Source of the DNA: a virus
DNA: 64,000 bases
Direction: 5' to 3' (one strand)
Virus record (IMG/VR): IMGVR_UViG_3300025626_000006
Coordinates: 1-64,000 of that record
The notes under the pieces: model-generated
Databases searched by the model: none
What the model was told of the DNA's origin: nothing
The model's input: only the letters and a program-made list of their open reading frames with translations
Shown here: in pieces, positions 1 to 64,000 of the stretch
How the letters are laid out: each line of letters starts with the position of its first letter
How positions within the stretch are numbered: position 1 is the first letter of the stretch
Program-made: the position numbers and the translations under genes

Positions 1-1020
1 TCACCTTTTGTTCCTGTAGCACCTTTAGCACCTTGAGGACTTGAACCTTGAGCACCTTGGTCACCTTTAGTACCAGTAGCACCTTTAGCACCTTGAGGAC
101 TTGAACCTTGAGCACCTTGGTCACCTTTAGTACCAGTAGCACCTTTAGCACCTTGAGGACTTGAACCTTGAGCACCTTGGTCACCTTTAGTACCTGTTGA
201 ACCTTGAGCACCTTGAGGACTTGAACCTTGAGCACCTTGGTCACCTTTAGCACCTGTAGCACCTTTTGAACCTTGAGGACTTGAACCTTGAGCACCTTGG
301 TCACCTTTTGTTCCTGTAGCACCTTTAGCACCTTGAGGACTTGCCCCTTGAGCACCTGTTGAACCTTGAGCACCTGTATCACCTTTAGCACCTTGAGGAC
401 TTGCCCCTTGTGCTCCTTGGTCACCTTTAGCTCCAGCAGCTCCAGTAGCTCCTTGAGGACTTGAACCTTGAGCACCTTGAGGACCTGTTGCCCCAGTAGC
501 TCCCTTAGCACCTTGAGGTGAAGAACCTTGAGCACCTTGAGGACCTGTTGCCCCAGTAGCTCCCTTAGCACCTTGAGGTGAAGAACCTTGAGCACCTTGT
601 GGGCCTGTAGCCCCAGTAGCACCTTTAGGGCCGGTTGGACTTGCCCCTTGTGCACCTTGTGGGCCTGTAGCCCCAGTAGCACCTTTAGGGCCGGTTGGAC
701 TTGCCCCTTGAGCACCTTGTGGGCCTGTAGCCCCAGTAGCACCTTTAGGGCCGGTTGGACTTGCCCCTTGAGCACCTTGGTCACCTTTAGCACCTGTAGC
801 ACCTTTAGGGCCGGTTGGACTTGAACCTTGAGCACCTTGGTCACCTTTAGCACCTGTAGCACCTTTAGGGCCGGTTGGACTTGCTCCTTGAGCACCTTGG
901 TCACCTTTAGCACCTGTAGCACCTTTAGCACCTTGAGGACTTGCCCCTTGAGCACCTTGGTCACCTTTAGCACCTGTAGCACCTTTTGAACCTTGAGGTG
1001 AAGAACCTTGAGCACCTTGT
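1..1020. repeat. 60-bp tandem repeat (about 17 imperfect copies) encoding a 20-aa interrupted collagen unit
   Basis: Consecutive 60-nt lines are near-identical. The minus-strand unit is [20 protein letters not shown]. Confidence 0.95.
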
Positions 1021-1676
1021 GGGCCTTGAGCTCCAGTAGCACCTTGAGCACCTGTTGGACTTGAACCAGCTGAACCTTGAGCACCTTGTGGGCCTTGATT
1101 ACTTGCTCCTTGAGCACCTGTTGAACCAGCACCACCGCCTGCTCCTTGAGCACCTTGTGGGCCTGCTCCACCTTGTTGACCTGTCGGCCCTTGAGAGCCT
1201 AATTGGCCTTTTTGACCTTTTTGACCTTTAGCACCTTGTGGGCCTGTGTTATGTACTAATAAATTTCCTACGAAATAATTGTGGTCTGGTTCTACTGTAA
1301 TACTTACAACTTCAATGTCTTCTTCTACTAACTCTATTGATGTTATAGATAAATCATTGTAAAATAGGTTATTACCACATTTACAATCAGAACATCCACA
1401 TGATTCGTTATTAATTGGTGAAACCCATTCACCATTTTTGTATATTTTTATATCAACGGAAGTTTTTAAGGTACTTCCATCTGATAATTTAAATTTGAGA
1501 TATTGGTGTAACGTACCAGTAGCTATTTGGGTAACTCTGTTATCTCTATTAACACCATTAGCTAAGTCACGACCTTGTACTAAGTCTCCAATTTGGATAG
1601 TTTCTAACTTTACGGAACTTCCATTGATATTAACTAAGGTATCTTTATGTAAACTGTGTATTAAATTGTAATTCAT
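1..1676 (-). CDS. Hint (intein-like) domain fused to a long collagen-like repeat; 3' end runs off the window; not in the ORF track
   Basis: ATG at 1676 with GAGGT SD and open frame to position 1. Translation [62 protein letters not shown].. then Gly-X-Y repeats. Confidence 0.92.
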
Positions 1677-1688
1677 GTTTTACCTCAA

Positions 1689-2246
1689 TTATGTTGTTAT
1701 CATATAAGTAATTGTTAGACCAAAACCTCTTGACCTAAGAGCGGCTTCTCTATCTATAAAAATGTTTATGTAATCTCCAGCTGCAAAAGAATGATTCGTA
1801 CCGAAGTTGAAATCTGTTACAGTTCCGGCAGTTGCACTTACTGTTGCAGATACGTCTGATGATAATTGTGACCCATTTTTTCGTATTCCCAACGTAACTG
1901 ACCCTGCAGTTGCTCCTTGGTGTGGATGTAAACGTATATCTTTTACATATCCAGCAAATGGTACTACAAATCTCCAATAACCTGTGGTTACTTTCCTATC
2001 AATGATGTTAACATTAGAAAATGGAACAAATCCTTCTATTTCATCATTTTTTAGTACTTCAGCATTTGTATTTTGAATAAATGGTACTTTTCCTCGAATT
2101 GTATTACTTCCAGCGGAAATACTACCCACATTCGAAAGATTGTTATCATCAAAGTCTACTCCACCAGTAAACAATGCAGCAGACGCTGTAATTTGATTTA
2201 AACTAGCATTAGAGCCGCTAGTGACTATTTTTTTCCAATTTGGCAT
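1689..2246 (-). CDS. virion fibre/appendage protein with WKKxxxSGS N-terminus and small beta-sandwich C-terminal domain
   Basis: N-terminus is paralogous to 2781..4280 (MPNWKKIVTSGSNASL vs MATWKKVIVSGSVASL). AAGGA SD. Confidence 0.6.
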   Translation of the reverse strand: MPNWKKIVTSGSNASLNQITASAALFTGGVDFDDNNLSNVGSISAGSNTIRGKVPFIQNTNAEVLKNDEIEGFVPFSNVNIIDRKVTTGYWRFVVPFAGYVKDIRLHPHQGATAGSVTLGIRKNGSQLSSDVSATVSATAGTVTDFNFGTNHSFAAGDYINIFIDREAALRSRGFGLTITYMITT

Positions 2247-2780: not shown

Positions 2781-4280
2781 TTAAACGTAAATATATATTT
2801 CGTTTGATTCTATTCTGATGTTACCAGGATGGTCAGCTAAAGCAGTTGCAGCGTTTGCAGCACTTCCTTCAAATACACCACTTAAGTAGTATCCACTTGT
2901 TCCAGCAGCGAAATCAGCAGTTGAATTAGCAGCTGTATCTGTTACTTTCACAGCAAGACGACCATCATTACTATTATATGTGTTATCTAATATAAGAGCG
3001 TGACCTGCTTGAGCAGTTCCATTAGAACCACCAAAGATAATACCACTATCACCTGACGTTGAACCTGAATTCAATAAAATGAATGCATCTTCTACGTTTA
3101 AGTTAGCAGTTTGTACTTCAGTTTTTGTTCCTTGAACAGTTAAATCACCACTTAACACTAAACTAGCACCATTAGCAACTCCAGTAAATGTAGGAGCAGT
3201 AAACATTGTTGCTTTACTCTCGTTTGTTACATTTCCTAAAGATACGTCTGAAGCAGCAAGTCCTAAGAATGTTTTAACATTAGCAGCTGAACCTGAGACA
3301 ACATTAGCATCATCCATCACAGTAACTACTGCTGCGTCAGTATAACCAACTTTATTTGTGTTAGTAGTAATTGCTGAAGCCTGCCCACCACTTATAGTTG
3401 TAGTATCACCCGCAAGTGCAGTAGTACTACTCGTACCTAATTGTAAAGTTGTTACTGAACCACCTAATGAGATAGCTGAACCATCTATTGATATAGAAGA
3501 GTTTGCTAATTTTCCATTTGCAATTGAACCAGCCAACATACCATTTGTAATACCACTAGCTTTTACTTTTAATTGACCAGAACCAGATATTTCAATAGAT
3601 GAATCATCTACATTCGCGTCTAAGTTCTCACCATTTGCTACAATACCATTTCCAGCTACATCTGAAGCGTCAAAATCAAATGTTATTGTTGAATCACTTG
3701 CATTGTTCAATGTAAATGAACCACCAGTTTTTAAACCATCACCAGCAGCTAATGTTATTGTTGAATTTTCAACACCAGCTAAAGAAGATACTTGAGCAGA
3801 TGATGAAATGATACCAGCACCCAATGCAGCGATACCTGCGGCATCTGTTACATCAGCACTTGCTTCAATATTATCTAATTTAGTTTTTAAAGTATTTGTA
3901 AAATTGTTTTGTGTTAAACCACCATCACCTACACCAATTTGTGCTGAAGATGAAATGATACCATTTAAGATATCTGCTGAACCATTGAATGCTACTCCAC
4001 CAATTGTTCTTGAAGTTTCAAGTAGTGTTGCTGTTGCAGCATTACCACTTGTGTCTTGATTACCAGATGCATTTACGCCTGGTAAATTGATAGCGGAACT
4101 ACCATCAAATGATACTCCACCAATGTTTACTGCACTTGCCAAGGCTGTCGCTGTACTTGCATTACCAGTTACATTACCAGTTACTCCACCAATTAAGTTT
4201 CCTTTAAAACCTACTGATGCTGATACTTCTGCTAAACTTGCTACCGACCCCGAGACAATGACTTTTTTCCATGTTGCCAT
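2781..4280 (-). CDS. tail fibre / virion structural protein
   Basis: G/S/A/T-rich, with IGGVxFxGSxxI repeats and LTVQGTKTEVQTANLNVED typical of phage fibres. AAGGGA SD. Confidence 0.7.
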   Translation of the reverse strand: MATWKKVIVSGSVASLAEVSASVGFKGNLIGGVTGNVTGNASTATALASAVNIGGVSFDGSSAINLPGVNASGNQDTSGNAATATLLETSRTIGGVAFNGSADILNGIISSSAQIGVGDGGLTQNNFTNTLKTKLDNIEASADVTDAAGIAALGAGIISSSAQVSSLAGVENSTITLAAGDGLKTGGSFTLNNASDSTITFDFDASDVAGNGIVANGENLDANVDDSSIEISGSGQLKVKASGITNGMLAGSIANGKLANSSISIDGSAISLGGSVTTLQLGTSSTTALAGDTTTISGGQASAITTNTNKVGYTDAAVVTVMDDANVVSGSAANVKTFLGLAASDVSLGNVTNESKATMFTAPTFTGVANGASLVLSGDLTVQGTKTEVQTANLNVEDAFILLNSGSTSGDSGIIFGGSNGTAQAGHALILDNTYNSNDGRLAVKVTDTAANSTADFAAGTSGYYLSGVFEGSAANAATALADHPGNIRIESNEIYIYV

Positions 4281-8000: not shown

Positions 8001-9593
8001 TGGTAAATCAGTATTCGATACAACTCGGTTACCATCAAATCCTATAAAGGAAGATGTAGCGACTGACATTGAAGCCGTTTGACTATTTGATATAGCAGAC
8101 CCAGTGAATGTATTTAAAGCCGTTAAACTTGTTTGAGCTGACCCAGTAAATGTATTTAAAGGTACAATGTTAGTAGAACCACCACCAAACCCTAAAGCGG
8201 TTATTTGATTTGATGAGGATACGACACCTGATGGTAAATTAGCTTTTACATTAATAGCATCTGTAACATCAGCACTTGCTTCAATTAAATCTAATTTATT
8301 ATGGTCTGCTGTTGTAAAATCATTAGTGGTTAATCCACCATCACCTACAACTGGTTTATTTGCAATATTGTTAAAGTTTACTTGAGCTGATGAACTAATT
8401 GTTCCACCAGGTAAAGTAGATGACCCAAATCCAGCTTGTGATATTGAACGTGATACTTCAGTATCAAAATCTGTTATACTCGAAGTTGTAATTGAACCTA
8501 CTGATGTTAGGTATGAACTTGAAGCTGCATTTAGAGCATTTATACTTGTTTGAGCTGAACCTGTAAAGTTATTTAAAGGTGTAGCGTTGAATGACCCACC
8601 ACCACCAAAACCTAAAGCGGTTATTTGTGCTGATGAAGATACTGTACCACTTGGGACTGATGTTAGGTATGAACTTGAAGCTACGTTTAAGGCAGTTATA
8701 CTTGTTTGAGCTGAACCTGTAAAAGTATTTAGTGCACTAATGTCCGTAGAACCACCACCTTGTCCAAATCCACTACTTGCGGCTGATGCCGAAATGTATG
8801 AATCAGTTACTACTGATGTTATCTGAGATGAACCTGAAATCGTTCCACTTGGAACTGATGTTAGATATGAACTTGAAGCTGCATTTAGAGCATTTATACT
8901 CGTTTGAGCTGAACCTGTAAAAGTATTTAGTGATGATATGTCTGTATGTGATGAACTTACAAGACCACTTGGTACATTATCTAAATTAGACCAATCAATT
9001 GACCCAGTAATTCCACCATTAACTTCAAAAGACCCAGTTACTTGTAAATCTGCACTTACTTTATAGTAACCAGACCCAGTCGTCCATATAGATGAACCAC
9101 CGGCTCCACCACCACCACCTAATGATGATAAATCAACAACATTTCCTTCTGATATACTTAATTCTTTAGATACTTGGTTGAATGTAAGTGTCTGATTGTC
9201 ACCACTAGCCTCTACTTGAGTTAAACGAGTGGATATTGAACCACTATCTGTTTCTAAAGAAGAAACTCTAGCTTTTATTGAACCACTTTCAGTATTTAAT
9301 GCAACAATACTACTTGTTATAGCTTCTATACTATCTACTCTACTATCTAATATAGCTTTTTCACTTTCGACTGTTGTAAGTCGAGTGGATACTGACGCAG
9401 ATGTAGCTAAGTTTGTAACTTGTCTAAAGTTATTGTTAGCTACAATTGAATTTTTTTGAAATGCAGAAATAGTTACAGGTCTATTAGAAATAGAATTGTA
9501 ATTAATCTGGTTTGATGACGACACAACTCCGTTAGAAGCCGTTATATCGCCATAAAATGACCCACTAAAGGAACCTGAATAGTCAAATGACAT
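5085..9593 (-). CDS. large fibre protein with N-terminal coiled-coil/repeats and C-terminal cadherin/Ig-like domains
   Basis: LNTFTGSAQTS repeats. Cadherin-like motifs (ENS..G..LGTITAND.EGD.I.F, N.PP/N.AP domain linkers). GGAG SD. Confidence 0.7.
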   Translation of the reverse strand: MSFDYSGSFSGSFYGDITASNGVVSSSNQINYNSISNRPVTISAFQKNSIVANNNFRQVTNLATSASVSTRLTTVESEKAILDSRVDSIEAITSSIVALNTESGSIKARVSSLETDSGSISTRLTQVEASGDNQTLTFNQVSKELSISEGNVVDLSSLGGGGGAGGSSIWTTGSGYYKVSADLQVTGSFEVNGGITGSIDWSNLDNVPSGLVSSSHTDISSLNTFTGSAQTSINALNAASSSYLTSVPSGTISGSSQITSVVTDSYISASAASSGFGQGGGSTDISALNTFTGSAQTSITALNVASSSYLTSVPSGTVSSSAQITALGFGGGGSFNATPLNNFTGSAQTSINALNAASSSYLTSVGSITTSSITDFDTEVSRSISQAGFGSSTLPGGTISSSAQVNFNNIANKPVVGDGGLTTNDFTTADHNKLDLIEASADVTDAINVKANLPSGVVSSSNQITALGFGGGSTNIVPLNTFTGSAQTSLTALNTFTGSAISNSQTASMSVATSSFIGFDGNRVVSNTDLPSGIYNTNFGTTTSLSDFVSKVFFPNTVPTINTNGFTIGEFVVSGSTIGTITGTDAEGQSFTFRTASSYSADKFKISTAGAVTLNTKSTASLNTDSTPGSGSHPIQVEAVDTFGGVGSKTIYIRVTPNTAPKWRQTSVGGSIITNFTHSLNENSTAGNNKVRVYFTDDESDEITIKSGSVNMNGFTFTKYGTYVQLNQTTASLDFEVTPKYEIVLTASDEHHVSGDDSEGVAYLPFRVSVVDNVIPTVNNQTLSSINENSADGASLGTITANDSEGDTIVFSNFTLLKAFKNGVNTNITSSLGGVSLYNPHSNPFQCSSAGVVTRKNGIYLNSDIADRYVYQVTVKDAFNTTEDTGEITIPITADATSAVSDNWTNLYIIESATSGDNIKVNADGLTGNTATWTSAVSQRWSLGTVTGNLVSLSTATGSSTTLQIGNLSGSAYASGSTISVAVTASEHGFETTKQFIDVDINVVKNNPPSVSFNNQSENLNTNGARSGSTLSVISFTDAESNNLNHPSFVFTDPSGQLNTVKDGNTYFVQAINNLSASTYQYTASIKDSHGFSTGVGKHTNTIAQAGNGTLGGDTTSYIIESGLNNEAIRDASGFGAGNPSQVTVSYSPTYNSAAVQSFTSSNASVSIDNSGNLTMGVALNGSSTGSGDVITSTITYRDQYDNVGTGTLTLNVFANQAPTATFSEVGANMTASVAASTNLTTITITDTESDTPFSASLGGTHAGNLKLVPQNANSSSYQLQNTGIISSGVTYNYSASVHDNFGKSTSYNKSITIIDQKALVYGYGWNGGSAASQAAAIAAMGDSGADGIGITSGSVISHLQSGSLGTTFNPTYVGGTMTLHKSGSLNTLSDSAGTGTSTFGHFNFSSGGSQRLIILFASASNQLGKPVSMYDGVPPDSTGTPKEYYVYAKDASIPGTIGTGVYYFDLENAHQGYNRWGMIFAEGENTNNSRYYIMPDSASAP

Positions 9594-9658
9594 CTATAAT
9601 CTCCAAATATTTAACACTTTTATACATATAAATATGTTTCTTTTTTCCTAATAGTTAC

Positions 9659-19619: not shown

Positions 19620-19653
19620 TATAAATATACAAAAAAAATAGTTTATATCCAAA
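19620..19653 (-). promoter_or_regulatory. composite host-type plus late promoter upstream of the portal
   Basis: TTTG-N20-TATATTTA overlapping TATTTATA. Confidence 0.6.
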
Positions 19654-23373: not shown

Positions 23374-23422
23374 AACTGTTTTGTTTGTATATAAATATTA
23401 AAAATAATTTAATGAATGTAGA

Positions 23423-27352: not shown

Positions 27353-27388
27353 AACTTGATTTTAGTTCTTTATATAAATATACGAAAA

Positions 27389-29702: not shown

Positions 29703-32700
29703 TTAATCACCACTTCCACTAATCAATAATTTCAATCTACTTACCTCTTCAGATAATTCTTGTATTGATTTAATCATTGGTGAAATAAGTTCGTTGTATC
29801 TAATACCCCATGGTGCATAGTTTTCTACAATAGTTCCATCTGGCTCCACCTGAGTGGTTGCAGGGTTTATAGTAATTCCTGCAAATTGTTGAGTATTTAC
29901 TCCAGCACTAGCAAGTGATGAACTTAAATCTTGAGCTATTAAACCATAATGTGTTCTACTACCACTTGTGAGATTTTGAATTTCCCATGAGTTTCTATTT
30001 CGAGTTTCTTTCCATTTGAATGAAACTGGATTTAGCGAGTTTACAAAATCTAATCCTAAGTTTGAACCTGTAATTTCTAACTTGTTACGTCTATCAGATG
30101 TTTGGATAACACCATTAGTTGCGTGGATATCATCCCATCGCTTTCTCACATTAGAGCCGTTTTCACCTAAATCATATGTATTGTCGAGGGCAGGTGATAC
30201 ATGACCTGTAACACGAAGAGCTCTTTGAAGAGTTGTAGCGTAGGTTTCTGCTAAAAGTGTAACCTGATTTCCTAAAGTCACAGCTCCAGCATTTATTGAA
30301 GAAGCTTTCATTCCCTTCACCATACGCATTTCAGAAACTCTTATTTGTGGTGCAACTTCACCCGTACTACCTCCTGAAGAATTAACCTTCCACCAACTTA
30401 ATTGTATTTTGAAGTGTTTTATTTGAGTTAGCTGTCTATATTCGGGATTAGCGTTTGACCCGCCTGGAGGAACACCAAGGTTAAGTTTTTCAAGAGCGTG
30501 TGAAAGTGGTATATCCCATCTGTGTGGAGAACCTGAATATATAGCAGCACGTTGGTCTCGCCAAAGTACAACTCCTTGATTAGAAATATTATTTGCATCT
30601 ACATCGTCTGGGTCATCGTGTATTATTTCTACCATGGTAGCCATTAACGCACCACCCCAGTTTCCTGTCCATGTGGTGTCAAATTGTAATAATATACAAT
30701 CATCTTTAAAACGTGTTGTTTCTCCAATGGATAGTGTGTCTGACTTAATTCCTAAGTAATTTCTACCCAAACCATCAGTTCCACCATATCGCGGGAATAT
30801 AGCATTTGTAATTTGATTAGCAAAGCCGGCACCTTTCATTCGGACTTTCGCTGTGTTATTAACATCGTCATATATATTAAAACTACCAGTGTAGAAACCA
30901 CCAGAGTGCCAGTAACCTGCTTGATAATCTTCATAATCACCACCTTCAGTCATCATTGTTCTAAACTCTTTTTGAGCAGTCATGTATGACAAATCATCAC
31001 CAGCGAATCCAGTTATACCACCAATCGGCTTACCACCAGTAGTTATAGAGCTTCCACCCCACTTTGTGAGTCCACCTTTAAATAAAGCTGTGTTTCCTAA
31101 TGACGCTGAATATTGATTTAAGTATTTGCCAGCAGCTGCTACCTGTGTACCTCTAATTGTGTGCCATTTATTTACAGCAGTAGCAATTATACCTGCCCCA
31201 CCTCCTGAACTCCCCGTAGCTGCTATTCCGAATTTTTTTATTGAACCAGCACCAGCACCACTACCCATAACGCCATCAAGGTCTGACCCAGTAACCCATG
31301 TTTCTACCCAAATTGGCCCATCAGAAGATATCCTATATGGTTGACCTGGATATGATGGTGAGTTACTTGAAAGTTCTCCCGTGTCTCCAGATGGATAATC
31401 TAGTAGGAAATTGTAAGAACCACTTTGACCAGCTTGTATAGGTTTACCTAATGCGCGGACATTTCTAAATGTACCAGTTCTAGCTACAATGTCACCATCG
31501 ATACTCGTATCACCTGAGGAAGACATAAAGAAGTTTGACGAACTTATTTCTATAAGTCCACCTGAACCACTTAGGTATTGTACACCATCTTTTCCAAAGA
31601 AAAACTTATCTACTTCTAAAACAGCTTTAGAACCTGTTATTAATAATTCTTTAGCAGTATTATTCCAATATAGATACCCGTCAACTGAACCACTCCCTAA
31701 AAAGAAATTACCACTACTATCTAAATATGATGTAAAGTCATCTAATGTAGCGTTAGCGGATGTTAATTGATTGTGAAACCCAAATACATTAGCTGTCATT
31801 AGTAATCCAGCTGGAGCGGGCCCCACGCCTGTTAAGTTTTCGTTTGCAAATGTAAAGTCTTGATTATCAACTCCCGGCGAACCTGGTGAACCTGGTGAAC
31901 CTGGTGAACCTGGCCCACCTGGTGTACCTGGTGTACCTGGTGTACCATCAGTACCATCAGTACCCGGAGTACCATCTGTACCATCTGTTCCATCTGTTCC
32001 ATCTGAGCCATCATCACCTTGTAAAGCTACTGCGATTGACATAGTTTTAGCAAGTTGTGTACTTGAACTTACAGCCGTTACTACAATTGAGCCGCTGAAT
32101 GGGGTTGTAGCTCCTGTGATTGTTACTGGGTTAGTACCACTTGTTGTATGATGTGTTGAAGAAGTAACACTAAACGTATAATCACTTGTTACATTATTGA
32201 TACCTTGATATACAAACATATCAGTACCAGCACCTGCGAATGAGATAATAGCACCTGAGCTACTTAATGGTAATGTGTGTGAATCATTAGTTAAGAAGGC
32301 AGATATAGCATCTGAACCATCTGAACCTGGAGTTCCATCACCACCTGGTGTTCCATCGGAACCTGGAGTTCCATCACCACCTGGTGTTCCATCGCCACCT
32401 GGTGTTCCATCGCCACCATCTGCTCCACCTTCAACTTTAAATATTTTTACTGCATCGGTTAATCCATCTTTAGTAGCTGAAATAGTGAATGGGAATGCTC
32501 CTTTAGTTTGAGCCATACCACCAGTTTGATTATTTCCTGTCCATGTAATACTACCACTTACAATACCCGTACCATTAGATATGTTATTATTATTAAAAGC
32601 AAATCCTGTTATTGAAGTACCTTGCGTTGTTGTTATTGATATATCACTACTACCAATAGCACCACTTAAGTTTTGTTGTTGAAAACTAAATATAATATTA

Positions 32701-35700
32701 AGTGGAGTTGCTGAAGTGTCTGAAGAATCATCAAATGACATTACTTGTGAATCTAAACTACCAATTAATAATTTTGCCGAAGTTCCATCTGAACCATCGT
32801 TACCTTGTTGTGATACAGCGAGTGACATTGTTTTTGATATGGAAACGGAAGCACTAGCAGCTGTTAAAACAAGTGAGCCACTAAACGGAGCGTTAGTACT
32901 TGTTACTGTTACTGGATTTGTACCACTTGTTGTTATGTAAGATGCTGATGTGTGTGTTATTGTATAATTTGAAGTTCTATCATTTATACCTTCAAATACA
33001 AACATTTCAGTTTGTGCGCCACTTAGTGATATCACATTGCCAGTATTATCAACTGGGATTGTATGTGAATCGTTAGATAAGAATCCACTAATTGCGTCAG
33101 TACCATTTGTTCCATCAGACCCATCAGACCCATCAGACCCATCGGAACCTGGCGTCCCGTCACCACCACCTTCGACTTTAAATACTTTTATTGAATCGGT
33201 TAATCCATCTTTAGTAACAGATATTGTTACAGGTAAAAATCCCTTGGTTTGTTGCATTCCACCTGCGGCTTGCCCACCAACCCACTTCAAACTACCACTA
33301 ACTATACCAGTCCCACTTGATACATCAGCGTTATCAAAATCAAATCCTGTTACTACTGAACCACCATTTCGTGTAATGGTTACGTCACTACTAGCGATAG
33401 TACCACTTAAGTTTTGTTGGTTAATACTGAATATAATATTAGATGGAGTTGCTGAAGTGTCTGAAGAATCATCAAATGCGAATACTTGCGAATCAACACC
33501 AATACTTAATAATTTAGCGGATGTACCATCTCCACCATCATCACCTTGACGTGCTACTGATAATGACATAGTTTTAGCAAGTTGTGTACTTGAACTTACA
33601 GCCGTTAGTATAACCGAACCACTAAATGGAGTTGTAGCTCCTGTGATTGTTACTGGGTTAGTACCACTTGTTGTTATATGAGCTGATGACGTAACGCTTA
33701 ATGTATAATTACTTGTTCTATTAGTTACACCCTCGAATACAAGCATTTCACTACTTGCACCTGCAAATGATATAATTTGATTTGAAGAACTTAATGGAAG
33801 TGTATGTGAGTCATTAGTTAATAATGCTGTTACTGCGTCTACACCATCTGAACCATCTGAACCATCTGAACCTGGAGTTCCATCTGAACCTGGTGTCCCA
33901 TCACCACCTGGTGTTCCATCTGAACCAGCAGTACCACCTTCAACTTTAAATATCGTTAATGAGTCACTTAGTGAATCTTTAGCTGCAGTAATTGTTATTG
34001 GTAAATTTGATTTTTGTCCTGCGGCTCCACCACTGGTTGTACTATTAGCAAATATAATTGAACCACTTACAATACCCGTACCATTAGATACATTAGCATT
34101 ATTAAAACTAAAACCAGCGATTGAACCACCACCAGCCCTTGTTACAGTTATATCACTACTACCAATAGTACCACTTAAGTTTTGTTGTTGAAAGCTAAAC
34201 TCTATTGTGGTTGGTGTTGCTGATGTATCAGCAGTATTATCAAAAGCAAATACTTGTGAATTTAAACTACCAATTAATAATTTAGCAGCAGTACCATCTG
34301 AACCATCGTTACCTTGTTTTGCTTTAGCAAGTGACATTGTCTTAACTAACTGAGTACTTGAACTTACAGCAGTTATAGTTAATGAACCGCTATCATGTCC
34401 CATGCCTGTAATTGTGAACGTTTTTGTTGATTGTGAAAATGTTACATTAGCACTTCCTGTTCCACTAAATGTATATTCAGATGTTTTATTATTAACACCT
34501 TCAAATACTTCCATATCAGTACTACCACCAGTAAAAACTGCAATCGTACCACTTGCATCAGCAGCGAATGTGTGATTTTCGTTTGTTAAGAATGTGGTTA
34601 CAGCATCAACACCATTTGAACCATCAGAGCCATCAGAGCCATCAGAACCTGGAGTTCCATCTCCACCATCTGAACCACCTTCAACTTTGAATACTTTAAC
34701 ATCATCAGAAAGAGAATCTTTAACTACCTCAATTGTTAGTGGTAAATCTGCTTTATTTGTTAGGTCTGTAAATGAAACACTACCACTCAGTTGACCACTA
34801 CCACCTGATACAACCCCACCTAATGATGGCGTAGTAATTGTACCACCACCAGCTTTAGTAATTGTAATATTACCAGTACCAACTGCACCACTTAGGTTTT
34901 GTTGGGATATAGTAAATACAATAGAGCTTGGAGTAGATGTATTATCTGAAGAGTCGTCAAAAGCAAATACTTGTGAATCTGTTGCTATTGTAAGTATTTT
35001 TGCGTTAGAACCATTTAGACCAGCCGTACCTTGTTTAGATTTGGCAAGTGACATGGTTTTAGTAAGTTGAACACTTGAGCTAACAGCCGTTATTGTTAGT
35101 GAGCCACTATCATGACCCATTCCAGTAAGGGTAAATGTTTTTCCACTTTGAGTAAATGTTACATTAGCACTTCCTGTTCCACTATATGTGTAAACTGAAG
35201 ACTTACTTGTTATACCTTCAAATACCTCAATGTCAGTTGAGCCGCCAGCGAAACTAGCAATTGTGCCAGTTGCATCAGCAGCAAAGGTATGAGATTCGTT
35301 TGTTAAAAAAGCAGTTACTGCATCTGACCCATCGGAACCTGGCGTTCCATCGCTACCATCGCTACCATCACTACCATCTGAGCCGCCTGTTCCACCCTCT
35401 ATTTTAAATATTTTTATTGAGTCACTTAAACCATCTTTAGTTACTACGACATCTAATGGTAATTTTGTTTTTGTAGCACTAACAGTTCCACTAAATGTAA
35501 TACTACCACTAACTTGACCACTTCCATCTGTAACATCTTGTTGTAATGTTGGGTCACTCAGTACATTATTCTGTGCATCGGTAATTGTTAAATCACCCGT
35601 ACCAATTGTACCACTTAGGTTTTGTTGATTAATGATTAATAAAATATCATTATCAATTGCTGTGTTACTTGAAGCACTTGCAAATGCAAATACTTGAGAG

Positions 35701-38700
35701 TCTGACGTTAAGGTTAGTACTTGAGCATCAGACCCAGCGAGTCCATCTGTTCCTTGTTTAGATTTAGCAAGTGACATTGTTTTAGCAAGCTGTGTACTTG
35801 AACTCACTGCTGTAATTGTTAACGAACCACTATCGTGACTCATTGAACTTATAGTAAACGTATTGGTAGATTGGCTAAAACCAACACCACTACTAGCGGT
35901 AGCACTAAAGGAGTATTCTGATGTTGAGTTTGTAACTCCTTCAAATACTTCCATGTCAGTTGAACCACCAGCGAATGATACTATGTTTCCATTACTTAGT
36001 GATGCAAATATATGACTTTCATTTGTTAAGAAAGTAGTTACAGCATCCGTACCATCAGAACCCGGCGTTCCATCAGAACCATCAGAACCATCAGAGCCAC
36101 CTGTTCCACCTTCTACTTTAAAAAGTGTTATGGTATCAGTCAAAGAATCTTTTGTTGCTGATATAGTTACTGGTAAATTACTTTTTGTAGAATTTAAACC
36201 ACCACTATTTAATGCGCCTGAAAATGTTATACTACCACTTACGATACCACTACCAGCCGATACATTAGTGTTATTAAGACTAAACCCAGTTACGTTTCCA
36301 CCAGCAGAAGAAATTGTAATATCACTACTATCAATAGTACCACTTAAGTTTTGTTGATTAAATGAGAATATTATATTAGATGGGGTTGATGTATTACTCG
36401 AAGCACTAGCAAAGGCAAATACTTGTGAGTTAGCACTTGCTATTAATGATTTAGCGCTACTACCATCTAACCCTGCATTTCCATCAGTACCCGGAGTACC
36501 ATCTGTACCATCTGTACCATCTGTTCCATCTATACCTTCTTTTGATTTAGCAAGTGACATTGTTTTAACTAATTGAACGCTTGAACTTACAGCCGTTATA
36601 GTTAATGAGCCACTATCGTGGGCGAATGATGTTATGCTAAAAGTTTTGGTACTTTGATTAAAACCTACACCAGCTGAACCTGTACCACTAAATGTATATT
36701 GTGAAGATTTATTTGTTATACCTTCAAATACCTCAATGTCGGTAGCTCCACCTACAAAACTTGATACTACACCAGTAGCACTTGCGGCAAATGTATGACT
36801 CTCGTTTGTTAAGAAAGCAGTTACTGCGTCAGTACCATCGGAACCTGGTGTTCCATCTGACCCGTCTGAACCATCTCCACCTGGTGACCCACCCGTACCA
36901 CCTTCTACTTTAAATATTGTTGTAGAATCGGTTAATGAATTTTTAGAAACTGAAATTGTTAGTGGTAAATCTGCCTTATTTGTTAAAGATGAGAATGCCA
37001 CACTACCACTTAATTGGCCGCTACCATTTGAAATAACACCATTGATTGCTGGGGTTGTAAATATACCACCACCAGCTTTAGTAATTGTAATATCAGATTG
37101 TGCGACTGCGCCACTTAGGTTTTGTTGAGATACAGTAAATACAATAGAGCTTGGGGTAGATGTATTGTCTGAAGCGCTATCAAATGCGAATACTTGTGAA
37201 TCTGTTGTAATAGATAATGCTCTAGCCGTATTTGAACCAGTAGCTTCTGCTAATACTGATGCAGTAGCTTCGTTAATAGCATCCTCAACGGATTGTCCAC
37301 CCGGTGTTCCATTTTCTATTCTAATCTGACCTCTTACAGTTAAAGATGACCCATCCCAAGTTAATTTTTCTCCTAAAGAAAAGTTACTTGCTGAGTCTAA
37401 ATAGAATCCTGTATTAGTGTTACTATGTACACCCTGTCCGATAAATAATTTACCAGCGTCCATTTTTATTCCACCAATCGAACCTGTGTTTGCTATGATA
37501 CCACCTTGGAGAAACACATTATCGGTCATTAATCCAAAACCTGGATTTGAGTTACCGAATACATAAGATGAATCTGCTAACCCACTTAAATCACCCAATC
37601 TTACTTTTAGAGCTACGTCATATAAACCACTACCTGTTCTTTCAACAATATCGATATATGGAGTTGCCGTATCATTTGGATTGGCGTTCATTTTAATGTA
37701 ACCAGTATTTAATTTACCAGTAGAAACAATGACTTGGCCATCTTCGTATGCTTGAGCCGCTGAAGATAGGTCACCCACAAAGTCTCCTGAAGAACCACTT
37801 CCATAAGCTCTCTGAACGTATATTCTACCATGAGTTTCGTCCTCATTAGAATTATCACCATCTACTGATGCTGATTGTAATAAGATGTATTCTGTTTGGA
37901 ATCCAGTGTTATCTACTTTTTTAGCTAAAAGTATTTCACCTTGTGAGAATCCACTAGCATTCTTTACAGACATTGTAGTTTCAGTTGATGTGACCGAACC
38001 TGTTATTGTTGTTGAGTTAGCTACCCATAATTGTCCACCAACGGCGTTTACCGATTCTTTTTCAAATGTAGTTGTTCTTAATGTACCTCTAATTCGTACA
38101 TTTTCAAATTCAGCAGTTCCATTTCCTTCAGATGAAATCTTCCATCCTTTTAATCCACTTGCAAAATCTCTGGTTTGTAAAATACCTTGAGGTTTCATTA
38201 TTAGGTTACCACCTTCAATAGAACCTGTTGTTATATCCCACCCACCTATTGATGCTGATACAAATTTAGCAAAACCACCCGCGTCAATAGAAGATGAAGC
38301 ATTTGCTTGTGTAGATGGGCTTCCATTAATTACGGCAGGAGTTCGGATATTATCTGTTGTTAAACTACCTAAAATAGTAGCATCAGCGCCAATAGTTAAA
38401 CTACCAGCTCCACTATTTGCTTTAGGGTCTAAGTGAAATAAAGATGAGCTGATTTCAATGTTACCACCAGAGCCACTCATAAACTGACTGCCAGGTGTAC
38501 CTATAAAAAACTTCTCAGCCTTTATATCTAATGTACCACTTCCTGATGTTGTGAAGATAAGGTGACTATTATCGTTATCACCAATGAATTGCATACCAAC
38601 TCCATCAAGTTGGTCAACCCCTACTGCTAAATTTCCACTACCAGAATATATTATGAATCCACCAGGACCTTTTCCCAATGAAGCTGATGTTAGTCCTTCA

Positions 38701-40178
38701 AATCCTACTGACCGTACGAAACCACTACTCGCACCACCAAGTTCAATACCACTACCTAATGCGTTTGATATAAAAATAGAACCTGTTATCAATGAACCTT
38801 TACCACCAATAAATGTATTTGCGGCGGGGAATACTACATCATCTATTAATATAAATGTTTTAGAAATTACCGATTCAGAATTTAAGAATTCTATTTTAAT
38901 TGTTTTTGGGTCACCAATATGATTTGTTGGGATTAAAACATCATATGTTATATTTTCAGTTCCATTTACAGTTGTTGATGATAATATTTCAAAATCACTT
39001 GGAACACCTTTAGATTTTATAGAAGTTTGTATAGTAACAACTTCACCAATAGAAGGTTTCAATGATGGTATTGTAAAACTACCAATTGAATTTAAATTTT
39101 CAGTTGTTGAATTTGATGCTGATGAAAAGTATTCAATTTCTGCTGGTATGTCAGCATAATCTGAGTATTTGTAAACGTGGTCTTTACTACCCGTTATTTT
39201 ATCTTTTATTTTTACAATACTACCATTCGTCAGACCTGTTATACTTGAAGTAAATGATGTTGGTTGTGCGAATGTTGGGCTGTCTTGTAATGGATACAAT
39301 GTAATGTTAGATAAGTCTAATCTAACTTCTGCCTTACCATTAAGCATTTCACCATTAAATTGACCACTTGATTGAAGTGATACGTCATTTCCAAAGTTAG
39401 ATGCATTATACTTAACATTAAAACTATCAGTTCTTAATGCCAGTTTAGTATCTATTCCTAATAATAATGGGTCATTACCCGTTACCATTTGGAAGTTAGT
39501 AAATGGTCGTAAACTAGCTGAAACAGTAGCTGTTGGTATTTGTGGTGCTTCGAACTCAAGAATAGCTGCCGAAGCGTCTTCAATAACAACTGGTATTTTT
39601 GTTGACCATTTTACAATTTTACCTGGTAGGGGTTTATTTTTTAATCGTCTACCAACACCACGTCCTGAACCTGAACCCCTACGTCTTAATAAAGGGGATT
39701 CATCATCTAAACTAATATCTCGTGATATATTAGATGGTAAAGCCTTTGACTCATTGTACCCACGACCTCGACCACTTCCACTACTACCACGCGCTGGAAC
39801 ATTACTTTGTACATTATTTTTAGCAGTACCTATAATTGTAATAGTCGCAGTACCTGGTGCTGTATTTTCTTTTGGATTTTCTCTATCGTTATATACCCAT
39901 ATTGTAATTACACGAGACCCATCGGAATATGTCTTATTTGGGATTTCGTAATATATAGGATTTCCAGCCGAATCTAATACTTCAACTTGAATTTGACTAT
40001 TGGGTTGTAATAAGTTTTTATTAGACCCAACTATTCTCATGGAATTTTTACCATACCCAAGATATGGTGGTAAATCCACAATATTAAAAAAATCAGATGA
40101 AGTTGCCGAATCATCAATGATGTCGGGCTTTATCTTATCAAGCTTTTGCTTAAATCGTTTTCTGTACTCTAATGCCAT
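29703..40178 (-). CDS. giant tail fibre (3491 aa) with seven two-domain repeats, collagen-like linkers and a C-terminal peptidase S74 intramolecular chaperone
   Basis: TSDRRNK..LNPVSFKW..HYGLIAQD..IRYNELI..IKSIQEL at the C-terminus. Repeated SQVFAF..QQNLSG and FLTNESH..KTMSLA domains. Confidence 0.88.
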   Translation of the reverse strand: MALEYRKRFKQKLDKIKPDIIDDSATSSDFFNIVDLPPYLGYGKNSMRIVGSNKNLLQPNSQIQVEVLDSAGNPIYYEIPNKTYSDGSRVITIWVYNDRENPKENTAPGTATITIIGTAKNNVQSNVPARGSSGSGRGRGYNESKALPSNISRDISLDDESPLLRRRGSGSGRGVGRRLKNKPLPGKIVKWSTKIPVVIEDASAAILEFEAPQIPTATVSASLRPFTNFQMVTGNDPLLLGIDTKLALRTDSFNVKYNASNFGNDVSLQSSGQFNGEMLNGKAEVRLDLSNITLYPLQDSPTFAQPTSFTSSITGLTNGSIVKIKDKITGSKDHVYKYSDYADIPAEIEYFSSASNSTTENLNSIGSFTIPSLKPSIGEVVTIQTSIKSKGVPSDFEILSSTTVNGTENITYDVLIPTNHIGDPKTIKIEFLNSESVISKTFILIDDVVFPAANTFIGGKGSLITGSIFISNALGSGIELGGASSGFVRSVGFEGLTSASLGKGPGGFIIYSGSGNLAVGVDQLDGVGMQFIGDNDNSHLIFTTSGSGTLDIKAEKFFIGTPGSQFMSGSGGNIEISSSLFHLDPKANSGAGSLTIGADATILGSLTTDNIRTPAVINGSPSTQANASSSIDAGGFAKFVSASIGGWDITTGSIEGGNLIMKPQGILQTRDFASGLKGWKISSEGNGTAEFENVRIRGTLRTTTFEKESVNAVGGQLWVANSTTITGSVTSTETTMSVKNASGFSQGEILLAKKVDNTGFQTEYILLQSASVDGDNSNEDETHGRIYVQRAYGSGSSGDFVGDLSSAAQAYEDGQVIVSTGKLNTGYIKMNANPNDTATPYIDIVERTGSGLYDVALKVRLGDLSGLADSSYVFGNSNPGFGLMTDNVFLQGGIIANTGSIGGIKMDAGKLFIGQGVHSNTNTGFYLDSASNFSLGEKLTWDGSSLTVRGQIRIENGTPGGQSVEDAINEATASVLAEATGSNTARALSITTDSQVFAFDSASDNTSTPSSIVFTVSQQNLSGAVAQSDITITKAGGGIFTTPAINGVISNGSGQLSGSVAFSSLTNKADLPLTISVSKNSLTDSTTIFKVEGGTGGSPGGDGSDGSDGTPGSDGTDAVTAFLTNESHTFAASATGVVSSFVGGATDIEVFEGITNKSSQYTFSGTGSAGVGFNQSTKTFSITSFAHDSGSLTITAVSSSVQLVKTMSLAKSKEGIDGTDGTDGTDGTPGTDGNAGLDGSSAKSLIASANSQVFAFASASSNTSTPSNIIFSFNQQNLSGTIDSSDITISSAGGNVTGFSLNNTNVSAGSGIVSGSITFSGALNSGGLNSTKSNLPVTISATKDSLTDTITLFKVEGGTGGSDGSDGSDGTPGSDGTDAVTTFLTNESHIFASLSNGNIVSFAGGSTDMEVFEGVTNSTSEYSFSATASSGVGFSQSTNTFTISSMSHDSGSLTITAVSSSTQLAKTMSLAKSKQGTDGLAGSDAQVLTLTSDSQVFAFASASSNTAIDNDILLIINQQNLSGTIGTGDLTITDAQNNVLSDPTLQQDVTDGSGQVSGSITFSGTVSATKTKLPLDVVVTKDGLSDSIKIFKIEGGTGGSDGSDGSDGSDGTPGSDGSDAVTAFLTNESHTFAADATGTIASFAGGSTDIEVFEGITSKSSVYTYSGTGSANVTFTQSGKTFTLTGMGHDSGSLTITAVSSSVQLTKTMSLAKSKQGTAGLNGSNAKILTIATDSQVFAFDDSSDNTSTPSSIVFTISQQNLSGAVGTGNITITKAGGGTITTPSLGGVVSGGSGQLSGSVSFTDLTNKADLPLTIEVVKDSLSDDVKVFKVEGGSDGGDGTPGSDGSDGSDGSNGVDAVTTFLTNENHTFAADASGTIAVFTGGSTDMEVFEGVNNKTSEYTFSGTGSANVTFSQSTKTFTITGMGHDSGSLTITAVSSSTQLVKTMSLAKAKQGNDGSDGTAAKLLIGSLNSQVFAFDNTADTSATPTTIEFSFQQQNLSGTIGSSDITVTRAGGGSIAGFSFNNANVSNGTGIVSGSIIFANSTTSGGAAGQKSNLPITITAAKDSLSDSLTIFKVEGGTAGSDGTPGGDGTPGSDGTPGSDGSDGSDGVDAVTALLTNDSHTLPLSSSNQIISFAGASSEMLVFEGVTNRTSNYTLSVTSSAHITTSGTNPVTITGATTPFSGSVILTAVSSSTQLAKTMSLSVARQGDDGGDGTSAKLLSIGVDSQVFAFDDSSDTSATPSNIIFSINQQNLSGTIASSDVTITRNGGSVVTGFDFDNADVSSGTGIVSGSLKWVGGQAAGGMQQTKGFLPVTISVTKDGLTDSIKVFKVEGGGDGTPGSDGSDGSDGSDGTNGTDAISGFLSNDSHTIPVDNTGNVISLSGAQTEMFVFEGINDRTSNYTITHTSASYITTSGTNPVTVTSTNAPFSGSLVLTAASASVSISKTMSLAVSQQGNDGSDGTSAKLLIGSLDSQVMSFDDSSDTSATPLNIIFSFQQQNLSGAIGSSDISITTTQGTSITGFAFNNNNISNGTGIVSGSITWTGNNQTGGMAQTKGAFPFTISATKDGLTDAVKIFKVEGGADGGDGTPGGDGTPGGDGTPGSDGTPGGDGTPGSDGSDAISAFLTNDSHTLPLSSSGAIISFAGAGTDMFVYQGINNVTSDYTFSVTSSTHHTTSGTNPVTITGATTPFSGSIVVTAVSSSTQLAKTMSIAVALQGDDGSDGTDGTDGTDGTPGTDGTDGTPGTPGTPGGPGSPGSPGSPGSPGVDNQDFTFANENLTGVGPAPAGLLMTANVFGFHNQLTSANATLDDFTSYLDSSGNFFLGSGSVDGYLYWNNTAKELLITGSKAVLEVDKFFFGKDGVQYLSGSGGLIEISSSNFFMSSSGDTSIDGDIVARTGTFRNVRALGKPIQAGQSGSYNFLLDYPSGDTGELSSNSPSYPGQPYRISSDGPIWVETWVTGSDLDGVMGSGAGAGSIKKFGIAATGSSGGGAGIIATAVNKWHTIRGTQVAAAGKYLNQYSASLGNTALFKGGLTKWGGSSITTGGKPIGGITGFAGDDLSYMTAQKEFRTMMTEGGDYEDYQAGYWHSGGFYTGSFNIYDDVNNTAKVRMKGAGFANQITNAIFPRYGGTDGLGRNYLGIKSDTLSIGETTRFKDDCILLQFDTTWTGNWGGALMATMVEIIHDDPDDVDANNISNQGVVLWRDQRAAIYSGSPHRWDIPLSHALEKLNLGVPPGGSNANPEYRQLTQIKHFKIQLSWWKVNSSGGSTGEVAPQIRVSEMRMVKGMKASSINAGAVTLGNQVTLLAETYATTLQRALRVTGHVSPALDNTYDLGENGSNVRKRWDDIHATNGVIQTSDRRNKLEITGSNLGLDFVNSLNPVSFKWKETRNRNSWEIQNLTSGSRTHYGLIAQDLSSSLASAGVNTQQFAGITINPATTQVEPDGTIVENYAPWGIRYNELISPMIKSIQELSEEVSRLKLLISGSGD
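32020..37225 (-). repeat. seven tandem A+B domain units of about 250 aa, joined by Gly-X-Asp/Pro linkers
   Basis: Counted 7 SQV[FM].F domains alternating with 7 DA[VI]...[LF]L[TS]N[ED][SN]H domains. Confidence 0.88.
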
Positions 40179-48500: not shown

Positions 48501-48584
48501 AATTGTTTTCCTCTTTTATACATATAAATATAGTTTTTTTTATTATTTAACCTATTTCTTGTTTTATAGTTTATTTAAGGTAAA

Positions 48585-63876: not shown

Positions 63877-64000
63877 GTTTTTGTACCAAAATTGATTTTA
63901 TTAACTTTTAGTTTTGTACTTATATCTACACAACCTAAGTTGCTAAGCTTAATAACTTAGTAATTATCTAAGATAATCACAAGTATAAATATAGATTATT

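Follow-up and report, generated by a model that had tools for sequence, protein, structure and literature searches.

We analyzed a 64,000-nucleotide (nt) stretch of viral DNA (the window, always meant at its full length), which comprises bases 1-64000 of the 111,909-bp linear IMG/VR viral contig IMGVR_UViG_3300025626_000006 (~63% complete). Its source is an uncultured aquatic T4-type phage, in which a collagen-like fibre gene opens with an intein-type (Hint) domain. From the sequence and a predicted structure, we propose that this domain is probably a domesticated pro-domain of the bacterial intein-like (BIL) / PT-HINT type, which would cut at its C-terminus only, via cyclisation of Asn143. 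The open reading frame (ORF) occupies 3..1676 on the minus strand and encodes 558 amino acids (aa), arranged as a 7-aa leader (M1-H7), a 136-aa Hint domain (S8-N143), Thr144, and collagen repeats; its 3′ end is open, with no stop codon before the window edge. As the window begins where the contig begins, the gene is truncated by the contig end itself. A previous reading of these letters without database searches (the sequence-only reading) had already seen that the ORF runs off the window and had placed S8..N143 at 1655..1248; on translation, both the coordinates and the residues proved exact.

Predicted fold of the Hint domain

PT-HINT was the best Pfam match to the protein (residues 1-153), with an E of 8.8e-5 and 23.2 bits, under the cutoff of 27.7. 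The single protein also scored 17.6 bits against Pfam Intein_splicing (cutoff 35.8) and 14.1 bits against NCBIfam intein_Cterm (cutoff 15.6), again below threshold, and the NCBIfam N-terminal intein model gave no match to the Hint domain of the window protein. A profile of 18 family members, run against PDB, matched BIL2 (6y75, E 1.7e-9), the C. thermocellum (Cth) BIL (2lwy, E 4e-7), and the gp41-1 mini-intein (E 1e-6).

An AlphaFold2 (AF2) model built from the family alignment had a pLDDT of 81 and a pTM of 0.76, and its sole disordered part was the loop of residues 90-103, which holds a Cys cluster (pLDDT <50). Its top Foldseek matches were BIL2, the Cth BIL, and mini-inteins. Structural alignment by VIA-align superposed the model on BIL2 6y75 with a Z of 17.7 and a root-mean-square deviation of 1.9 Å over 131 residues, on the Cth BIL with a Z of 16.6, and on many inteins with a Z of 15-17; at least 84 chains reached Z >= 8, and all of them were inteins, BILs, or Hedgehog domains. 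Model residues 8..143 paired with residues 1..end of the Mtu RecA, MchDnaB-1, Msm DnaB, and PI-PfuI inteins; therefore, S8 corresponds to position 1 and N143 to the terminal Asn. Thus, the Hint fold called by the sequence-only reading was borne out by the family profile, the AF2 model, and the Z of 17.7, and membership of S8-N143 in the Hint superfamily was confirmed at the level of the predicted fold. Complex prediction with three copies of the domain returned an ipSAE of 0.01-0.02, which lends a trimer no support but counts neither for nor against one.

Active-site residues and distribution of the family

We surveyed 71 distinct sequences from 106 loci, with some columns counted over 68 or 69 sequences. 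A scan of viral contigs yielded 22 loci with 39-97% identity, which had a common plan of a short leader, the Hint domain, HN/T, a collagen of 900-1200 aa, and a C-terminal domain of ~45 aa. A metagenome scan gave 80 further loci from marine, estuarine, and freshwater samples, and a longer homologue search setting contributed only 3 extra fragments.

Residues of the C-terminal junction were kept throughout. H132, H142, and N143 were present in 71/71 sequences, and the +1 residue was Thr in 70 and Ser in 1 (n=71). Blocks F and G formed the most conserved stretch, with a mean column identity of 0.92 compared to 0.56-0.78 elsewhere in the domain. Synonymous codons were used among members for H142 (CAT/CAC), N143 (AAC/AAT), and T144 (ACA/ACG/ACC/ACT), and likewise for H7, indicating selection at the protein level.

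The N-terminal set showed a different pattern. Position 1 of the domain was Gly in 41, Ala in 18, and Ser in 10 sequences and Cys in none (n=69), encoded by AGT, GGA, GGT, or GCA. At block B position 10 (B:10), the place of the block B His, we found Ala, Ile, Ser, Leu, or Val in all 71 and His in none. The B:7 Thr position held Ser in 67 and Thr in 4; in the window copy, alignment to the TVNH of BIL2 and to PT-HINT outgroups with TxxH assigned S73 to B:7 and I76 to B:10. Four loci (L100, L102, L105, and L108) read K-T-T-H-D-A in block B, with a His two positions ahead of B:10, and all four had Gly at position 1. Block F position 4 (F:4) was Ser in 71/71 (S125 in the window copy). G:5 was V141 in the window copy and V, I, L, or M across the family, and Trp was absent at B:12.

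An endonuclease domain was absent from the window Hint domain. A cluster of 3-4 Cys residues was found in 20/68 family members, and 47/68 had domains free of Cys. Because the cluster is restricted to one clade, it cannot be central to the mechanism. A Pfam Metallothio_Euk match on the cluster was rejected as sub-threshold and compositional.

We also searched by the C-terminal fibre domain alone, which retrieved 15 loci whose ORF had its 5′ end inside the contig. All 15 began with a leader, the Hint domain, and HN/T, and no Hint-less allele was seen among these 15 complete orthologues. Family leaders were 3-7 aa long (MIH, MELIH, MSLIH, and others) and had I-H at positions −2/−1 in 69/69 sequences. 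Every relative had an equivalent of the Shine-Dalgarno (SD) sequence and, 3-7 codons ahead of block A, an ATG, and an AGG/GGGG-type SD with unchanged spacing was present in 16/16 relatives examined. The start codon is thus well supported, both by GAGG 6 nt upstream and by this shared placement. Scans of viral contigs, metagenomes, and species genomes located the Hint-collagen family on phage contigs only; it was absent from 185,579 bacterial and archaeal species genomes, and cultured phages gave no relative when the Hint domain, the C-terminal domain, or a neighbouring 1502-aa protein served as query. With more than 100 loci, the family occurs widely in viromes from marine, estuarine, and freshwater sites.

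These results bear on several claims of the sequence-only reading. It had described a change of the block B His to Ile, a change of the block F Asp to Ser, and intact residues for C-terminal cleavage, all of which the alignment and survey upheld, the loss of the block B His extending to 71/71 sequences. It had seen the Cys cluster in place of a homing endonuclease, and the cluster indeed lies in the disordered loop from block B to block F. It had also judged that the domain is not a selfish or mobile intein. No collagen gene that joins the leader directly to TGPQG was found, as 15/15 carried the Hint domain, and the N-extein is merely 3-7 aa. The sequences therefore support the view that the Hint domain is not a mobile intein.

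An exhaustive phmmer search gave 157 matches, and those outside the family were PT-HINT/BIL-type domains within large bacterial proteins, some of which directly preceded the toxin domains Colicin_D and Tox-PL-2. All outgroups inspected retained a TxxH-type His in block B and Asp or Asn at F:4, and those with an intact N-terminus retained Cys1. Since these residues are retained there, loss of Cys1, the block B His, and the F:4 Asp/Asn is derived and specific to the phage collagen family. In an unrooted tree of the domain, the Ser-1 sequences all fell to one side of a well-supported branch, and the codons permit a one-step path TGT (Cys) > AGT (Ser) > GGT/GGA (Gly) > GCA (Ala). Ser at position 1 of the window copy may therefore be the older state, as far as an unrooted tree can tell.

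Proposed one-way cleavage and its alternatives

In inteins, the N-terminal acyl shift relies on Cys/Ser1, Thr B:7, and His B:10, and His F:13 together with His G:6 assists cyclisation of Asn G:7, which cuts the C-terminal junction (PMC4031507). Type-A BILs cleave C-terminally through Asn (PMC7765530), and the Mtu RecA mini-intein with D422G, in which the block F Asp is removed, shows pH-dependent C-terminal cleavage without ligation (PMC9033041). On this basis, we propose the following course. The residues would fold into the Hint horseshoe, as predicted by the model. No ester would form at the N-terminal junction, because position 1 varies (G/A/S) and offers no conserved nucleophile, the block B His is missing, and B:7 is occupied by Ser in place of Thr; the 3-7-aa leader would consequently remain on the Hint fragment. 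H132 (F:13) and H142 (G:6) would then help N143 to form a succinimide, severing N143-T144, a step suggested by the invariance of these residues and by the established chemistry of inteins and BILs. Ser in place of the block F:4 Asp would uncouple this C-terminal cleavage from any N-terminal step. The predicted products are a 143-aa Hint fragment with its leader and a fibre whose triple helix starts from the new N-terminus Thr-Gly-Pro. We read the domain as one-way because the family has lost the N-terminal residues, carries a substitute for the coupling Asp, and keeps the C-terminal residues without exception. The suggestion of the sequence-only reading that the active site is tuned for C-terminal cleavage only fits the conserved residues and appears stronger after the survey.

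Several points weigh against this reading. All of the evidence comes from sequence comparison and structure prediction. Some inteins couple Asn cyclisation to their N-terminal chemistry, and loss of B:10 and F:4 could therefore slow it instead of freeing it. The near-invariant Thr+1, Ile−2, His−1, and His10 are left unexplained by cleavage alone, and a cleaved fibre would have no globular N-terminal domain for virion docking. Ser1 together with the bulky His−1 may leave room for residual N-terminal chemistry in the window copy; such chemistry cannot be the common function of the family, because 59/69 have Gly or Ala at position 1. Furthermore, the invariance of HN is partly a matter of ascertainment, as the C-terminal blocks were part of both the metagenome search patterns and the extraction regex. 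The patterns of the viral-contig scan spanned the whole Hint domain and are free of this bias, and the search by the C-terminal fibre domain provides a second sample free of it.

The docking problem would vanish if the domain were never cut and instead formed a permanent N-terminal head, for example one docking on the capsid, neck, or baseplate, with its C-terminal residues being structural. Phage fibres normally attach via an N-terminal domain, and cleavage leaves none; moreover, C-terminal cleavage does not require the invariant I6-H7 and H10, which could form a binding surface. The decay of the N-terminal catalytic residues also suits a domain that is already partly non-enzymatic. However, a structural domain would not be expected to keep H132, H142, and N143 in 71/71 sequences with the rest only 39-60% identical, nor does it account for the far higher conservation of blocks F/G than of the remainder (0.92 vs ~0.6) or for collagen repeats that begin directly after HN/T without a linker. 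We regard an uncleaved head as unlikely. The sequence data do not separate one-way cleavage from a conditional form of it, in which the fibre stays anchored or parked by the Hint domain until pH, assembly, or helix completion triggers Asn cyclisation as a timed release switch. Conformation controls Asn cyclisation in inteins (PMC4031507), the C-terminal cleavage of engineered inteins lacking the F:4 Asp depends strongly on pH (PMC9033041), and the triple helix here starts right at the predicted scissile bond. We give such a switch a small chance.

An unusual true splicing element, ligating M..IH to TGP, is very improbable in our view. It could be class 2-like, with direct attack by Thr+1, or class 3-like, with a branch at Ser125. 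The +1 residue, which has to be a nucleophile for splicing only, is almost always Thr, but attack by a hydroxyl on an unactivated amide is without precedent in the intein reviews consulted (PMC4031507). The invariant hydroxyl at F:4 occupies the class 3 Cys position, yet the class 3 WCT signature is not there: B:12 is not Trp, F:4 is Ser and not Cys, and G:5 is V/I/L/M and not Thr. Although an engineered intein can use a bulky −1 residue in place of its block B His (PMC6333167), that His is missing in 71/71 family members. The invariant I-H at −2/−1 is what a part of the mature product would show, but joining a 3-7-aa peptide has no evident use. The absence of an intein-less allele from the 15 complete orthologues and the lack of an endonuclease likewise speak against splicing.

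Collagen cargo, gene neighbourhood, and known systems

The features of the gene and the copies of the promoter-like motif discussed below are listed with their coordinates.

Table 1. Coordinates of features in the window
Feature	Position	Strand	Basis or remark
Shine-Dalgarno GAGG	1683..1686	-	read from sequence, 6 nt ahead of ATG
Start codon and leader MNYNLIH	1656..1676	-	I6 and H7 are positions −2 and −1 to the Hint domain
Hint domain S8-N143, BIL / PT-HINT type	1248..1655	-	AF2, structural alignment, family profile
Block A SLHKDTLV from S8	1632..1655	-	position 1 is Ser8, codon AGT
Degenerate block B L70-K-T-S-V-D-I-K-I-Y	1440..1469	-	S73 at B:7 Thr position, I76 at B:10 His position
Cys cluster C93-G-C95-S-D-C98-K-C100	1377..1400	-	loop where large inteins house the endonuclease
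Blocks F/G V123-N143	1248..1310	-	S125 (F:4), H132 (F:13), H142 (G:6), N143 (G:7)
Predicted scissile bond N143/T144	1245..1250	-	HN/T conservation; putative cleavage
Collagen-like region from G145, 414 aa	3..1244	-	Pfam Collagen match; leaves contig
TATAAATA copies	9627-9634, 10363-10370, 13646-13653, 17684-17691, 19620-19627	+	
TATAAATA copies	23390-23397, 27373-27380, 40202-40209, 48523-48530, 63984-63991	+	

The collagen region matched Pfam Collagen (PF01391) above threshold, with an E of 6.6e-32 and 109.5 bits. Tandem Repeats Finder showed an array at window positions 1-1067 (-) with a period of 60 nt, 17.8 copies, and 87% matches. In each encoded 20-aa unit, six G-X-Y triplets are accompanied by an insertion of two residues, either PQ or PT (G-S-S-P-Q-G / G-A-S-P-T-G); altogether, there were 103 G-x-x-G spacings in triplet runs mostly 6 long, with 19 interruptions, such that the helix is interrupted regularly, once per 20 residues. 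The 60-nt tandem array is probably why nearly all contigs break within the gene, and with repeats of a 20-aa period, there are many wrong registers in which three chains could pair. The C-terminal domain of the family (~45 aa) has 16 invariant columns and is a plausible site of helix nucleation. It is not on the window's own contig; it is present in a 97%-identical relative (L055) and in two loci with window-like repeats (L038/L039). In L055 (236-1210), whose Hint domain is 97% identical, the complete ORF is merely 325 aa with the C-terminal domain unchanged, which reflects either assembly collapse of the repeats or real length variation.

With regard to purpose, the sequence-only reading had suggested that the domain may register or trimerise the collagen helix, an idea that gained no support from the analysis. 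The Hint domain may keep the N-termini of a long, register-ambiguous collagen soluble or masked until C-terminal joining and then leave, a suggestion that we make with low confidence. A further-reaching idea, which we hold to be doubtful, is that the phage has a procollagen pathway in which the domain serves as an obligatory N-propeptide that removes itself autocatalytically. As such, it would block mis-registering or early docking of the three chains and would cut when the helix nucleated at the C-terminal domain reaches the scissile bond, thereby sensing the completion of folding, alongside the flanking hydroxylase and glycosyltransferase genes of related phages.

The window encodes a T4-type major head protein, a portal, a large terminase, and a baseplate wedge. 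The nearest cultured capsid proteins were those of Microcystis phage Mel-JY01 (59%) and the Flavobacterium 'immuto' phages (54%), and the gene organisation downstream of the capsid gene differs in Mel-JY01. In relatives, the order of the 1502-aa, 219-aa, 499-aa fibre-like, and 185-aa proteins, followed by the Hint-collagen gene, was conserved. The Hint-collagen gene belongs to a conserved module of fibre genes in a T4-superfamily phage. The 185-aa ORF (1689-2246, -) and the 499-aa ORF (2781-4280, -), which precede the Hint-collagen gene in this order in all relatives examined, share an N-terminal M-x-x-W-K-K-[IV]-x-x-S-G-S-x-A-S-L. The 499-aa protein matched tail-fibre PHROGs, and the 185-aa protein had no Pfam family. 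The Hint-collagen gene starts 12 nt past the 185-aa ORF and is probably co-transcribed with it. A fusion of the two ORFs was rejected: they share a frame, but two TAA stops lie between them, and in L009 the frames differ.

The sequence-only reading had assigned the gene its own SD and its own late-promoter motif. The GAGG is real, with an SD in all relatives, whereas the promoter at 1703-1710 is weak. The proposed site (1710..1703, TACTTATA) is a 7/8 match to TATTTATA, one-mismatch copies of which occur ~1 per 600 nt, as expected by chance, and it is not conserved in relatives; it was therefore rejected. Exact copies of TATAAATA on the plus strand, which correspond to TATTTATA on the coding (-) strand, numbered 10 compared to 1 in the opposite orientation. 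Among nine copies compared with gene starts, eight were ~17-49 nt upstream and that at 63984-63991 was ~108 nt upstream; the copy at 13646-13653 was outside this comparison. TATTTATA is likely a late-promoter-like element, although its total count is no higher than chance.

Another fibre of the window, of 3491 aa (29703-40178, -), combines Peptidase_S74 near its C-terminus (E 7.6e-11) with short collagen-like stretches, and the S74 chaperone ascribed to it by the sequence-only reading was thus verified. One fibre domain that removes itself is therefore already in use in this phage. In relatives, a second collagen gene lies ~20 nt after the Hint-collagen gene (L054:6122-9226, L051:6160-11997, L009:9720-12437, and others). 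Its product has a divergent N-terminal domain of 155-210 aa that ends in [FY][IV]VHN and is followed by a Cys-containing linker, and its C-terminal domain resembles that of the first collagen. When the Hint family was compared with this N-terminal domain by hhalign, blocks F/G alone aligned (probability 64%, E 6e-5), and the AF2 model of the latter was too poor to judge the fold (pLDDT 48.5). Downstream of both collagen genes in L054 are a 2OG-Fe(II) oxygenase (9275-9874, E 2e-13) and a glycosyltransferase group 1 domain fused to an OGFOD2-like/2OG oxygenase (9889-11562), which are candidate collagen-modifying enzymes. The counterpart of this second-collagen and enzyme region falls past the end of the window's contig. 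On the same contig, outside the window, a 236-aa ORF has a weak 2OG-FeII_Oxy_3 match at 93884-94141 (-), with 25.3 bits under a cutoff of 27.

Should cleavage prove real, the family would represent a Hint domain that nature has pared down to cutting at its C-terminus only and has conserved in that form, much as engineers build self-removing N-terminal tags. It would also add a new maturation step for phage fibres, in which a collagen of ~1000 aa loses a pro-piece autocatalytically. The domain is compact (129-143 aa) and Cys-free in most members and could serve as a traceless cleavage module; moreover, position 1 varies naturally between G, A, and S among the members, which offers material on the uncoupling of Asn cyclisation from the N-terminal steps. 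In the literature, we found no description of a Hint domain fused to a phage collagen.

Peptidase_S74 of phage tailspikes and fibres offers a possible functional analogy, since it too is located terminally in a trimeric fibre and is shed by its own activity once assembly is complete; however, its fold is unrelated, its chemistry is that of a Ser-Lys dyad protease and not Asn cyclisation, and it sits at the opposite end of the protein. The N-propeptide of animal procollagen is a conceptual likeness, a globular N-terminal pro-piece taken off a long collagen, without homology. Animal propeptides are cut by separate proteinases, whereas removal of the phage Hint domain would be autocatalytic. Class 1 mini-inteins (gp41-1, Ssp DnaB, Npu DnaE) share with the phage domain the fold (Z 15-17), blocks A, F, and G, the C-terminal HN, and a +1 hydroxyl, and the window copy even shares their Ser at position 1. 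Unlike them, the phage family lacks the block B His and a conserved position-1 nucleophile and is not inserted in a conserved host protein. Mini-inteins with the position-1 nucleophile changed to Ala are used as self-removing N-terminal tags. In the engineered C-terminal-cleaving tag Mtu RecA delta-I-CM with D422G, an N-terminal Hint domain that has its N-terminal chemistry disabled and its block F Asp removed cuts itself off the protein behind it (PMC9033041), a logic that the phage domain would share. These tags are laboratory constructs, whereas the phage domain would be an equivalent that evolved and was conserved in nature.

The closest systems by both sequence and structure are the type-A BILs and PT-HINT domains (PF07591; Cth BIL 2lwy and Tetrahymena BUBL BIL2 6y75/6tmm). 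Similar to the phage domain, type-A BILs are mini-Hint domains that have no endonuclease, end in His-Asn, and are domesticated rather than mobile. They release their C-terminal neighbour by Asn cyclisation (PMC7765530, PMC3482391), as the phage domain is predicted to do. However, BIL-A and PT-HINT domains keep Cys1, the block B TxxH, and Asp/Asn at F:4, all three of which the phage family is without. In the variable surface and toxin proteins of bacteria that carry them, they also lie internally or close to the C-terminus, whereas the phage domain stands at the extreme N-terminus, after 3-7 residues and before a collagen. C-terminal-cleaving Hint domains such as BIL-A and PT-HINT are thus already known; what appears new in the phage family is the extreme N-terminal position, the phage-collagen cargo, and the distinctive active site with its putative one-way chemistry.

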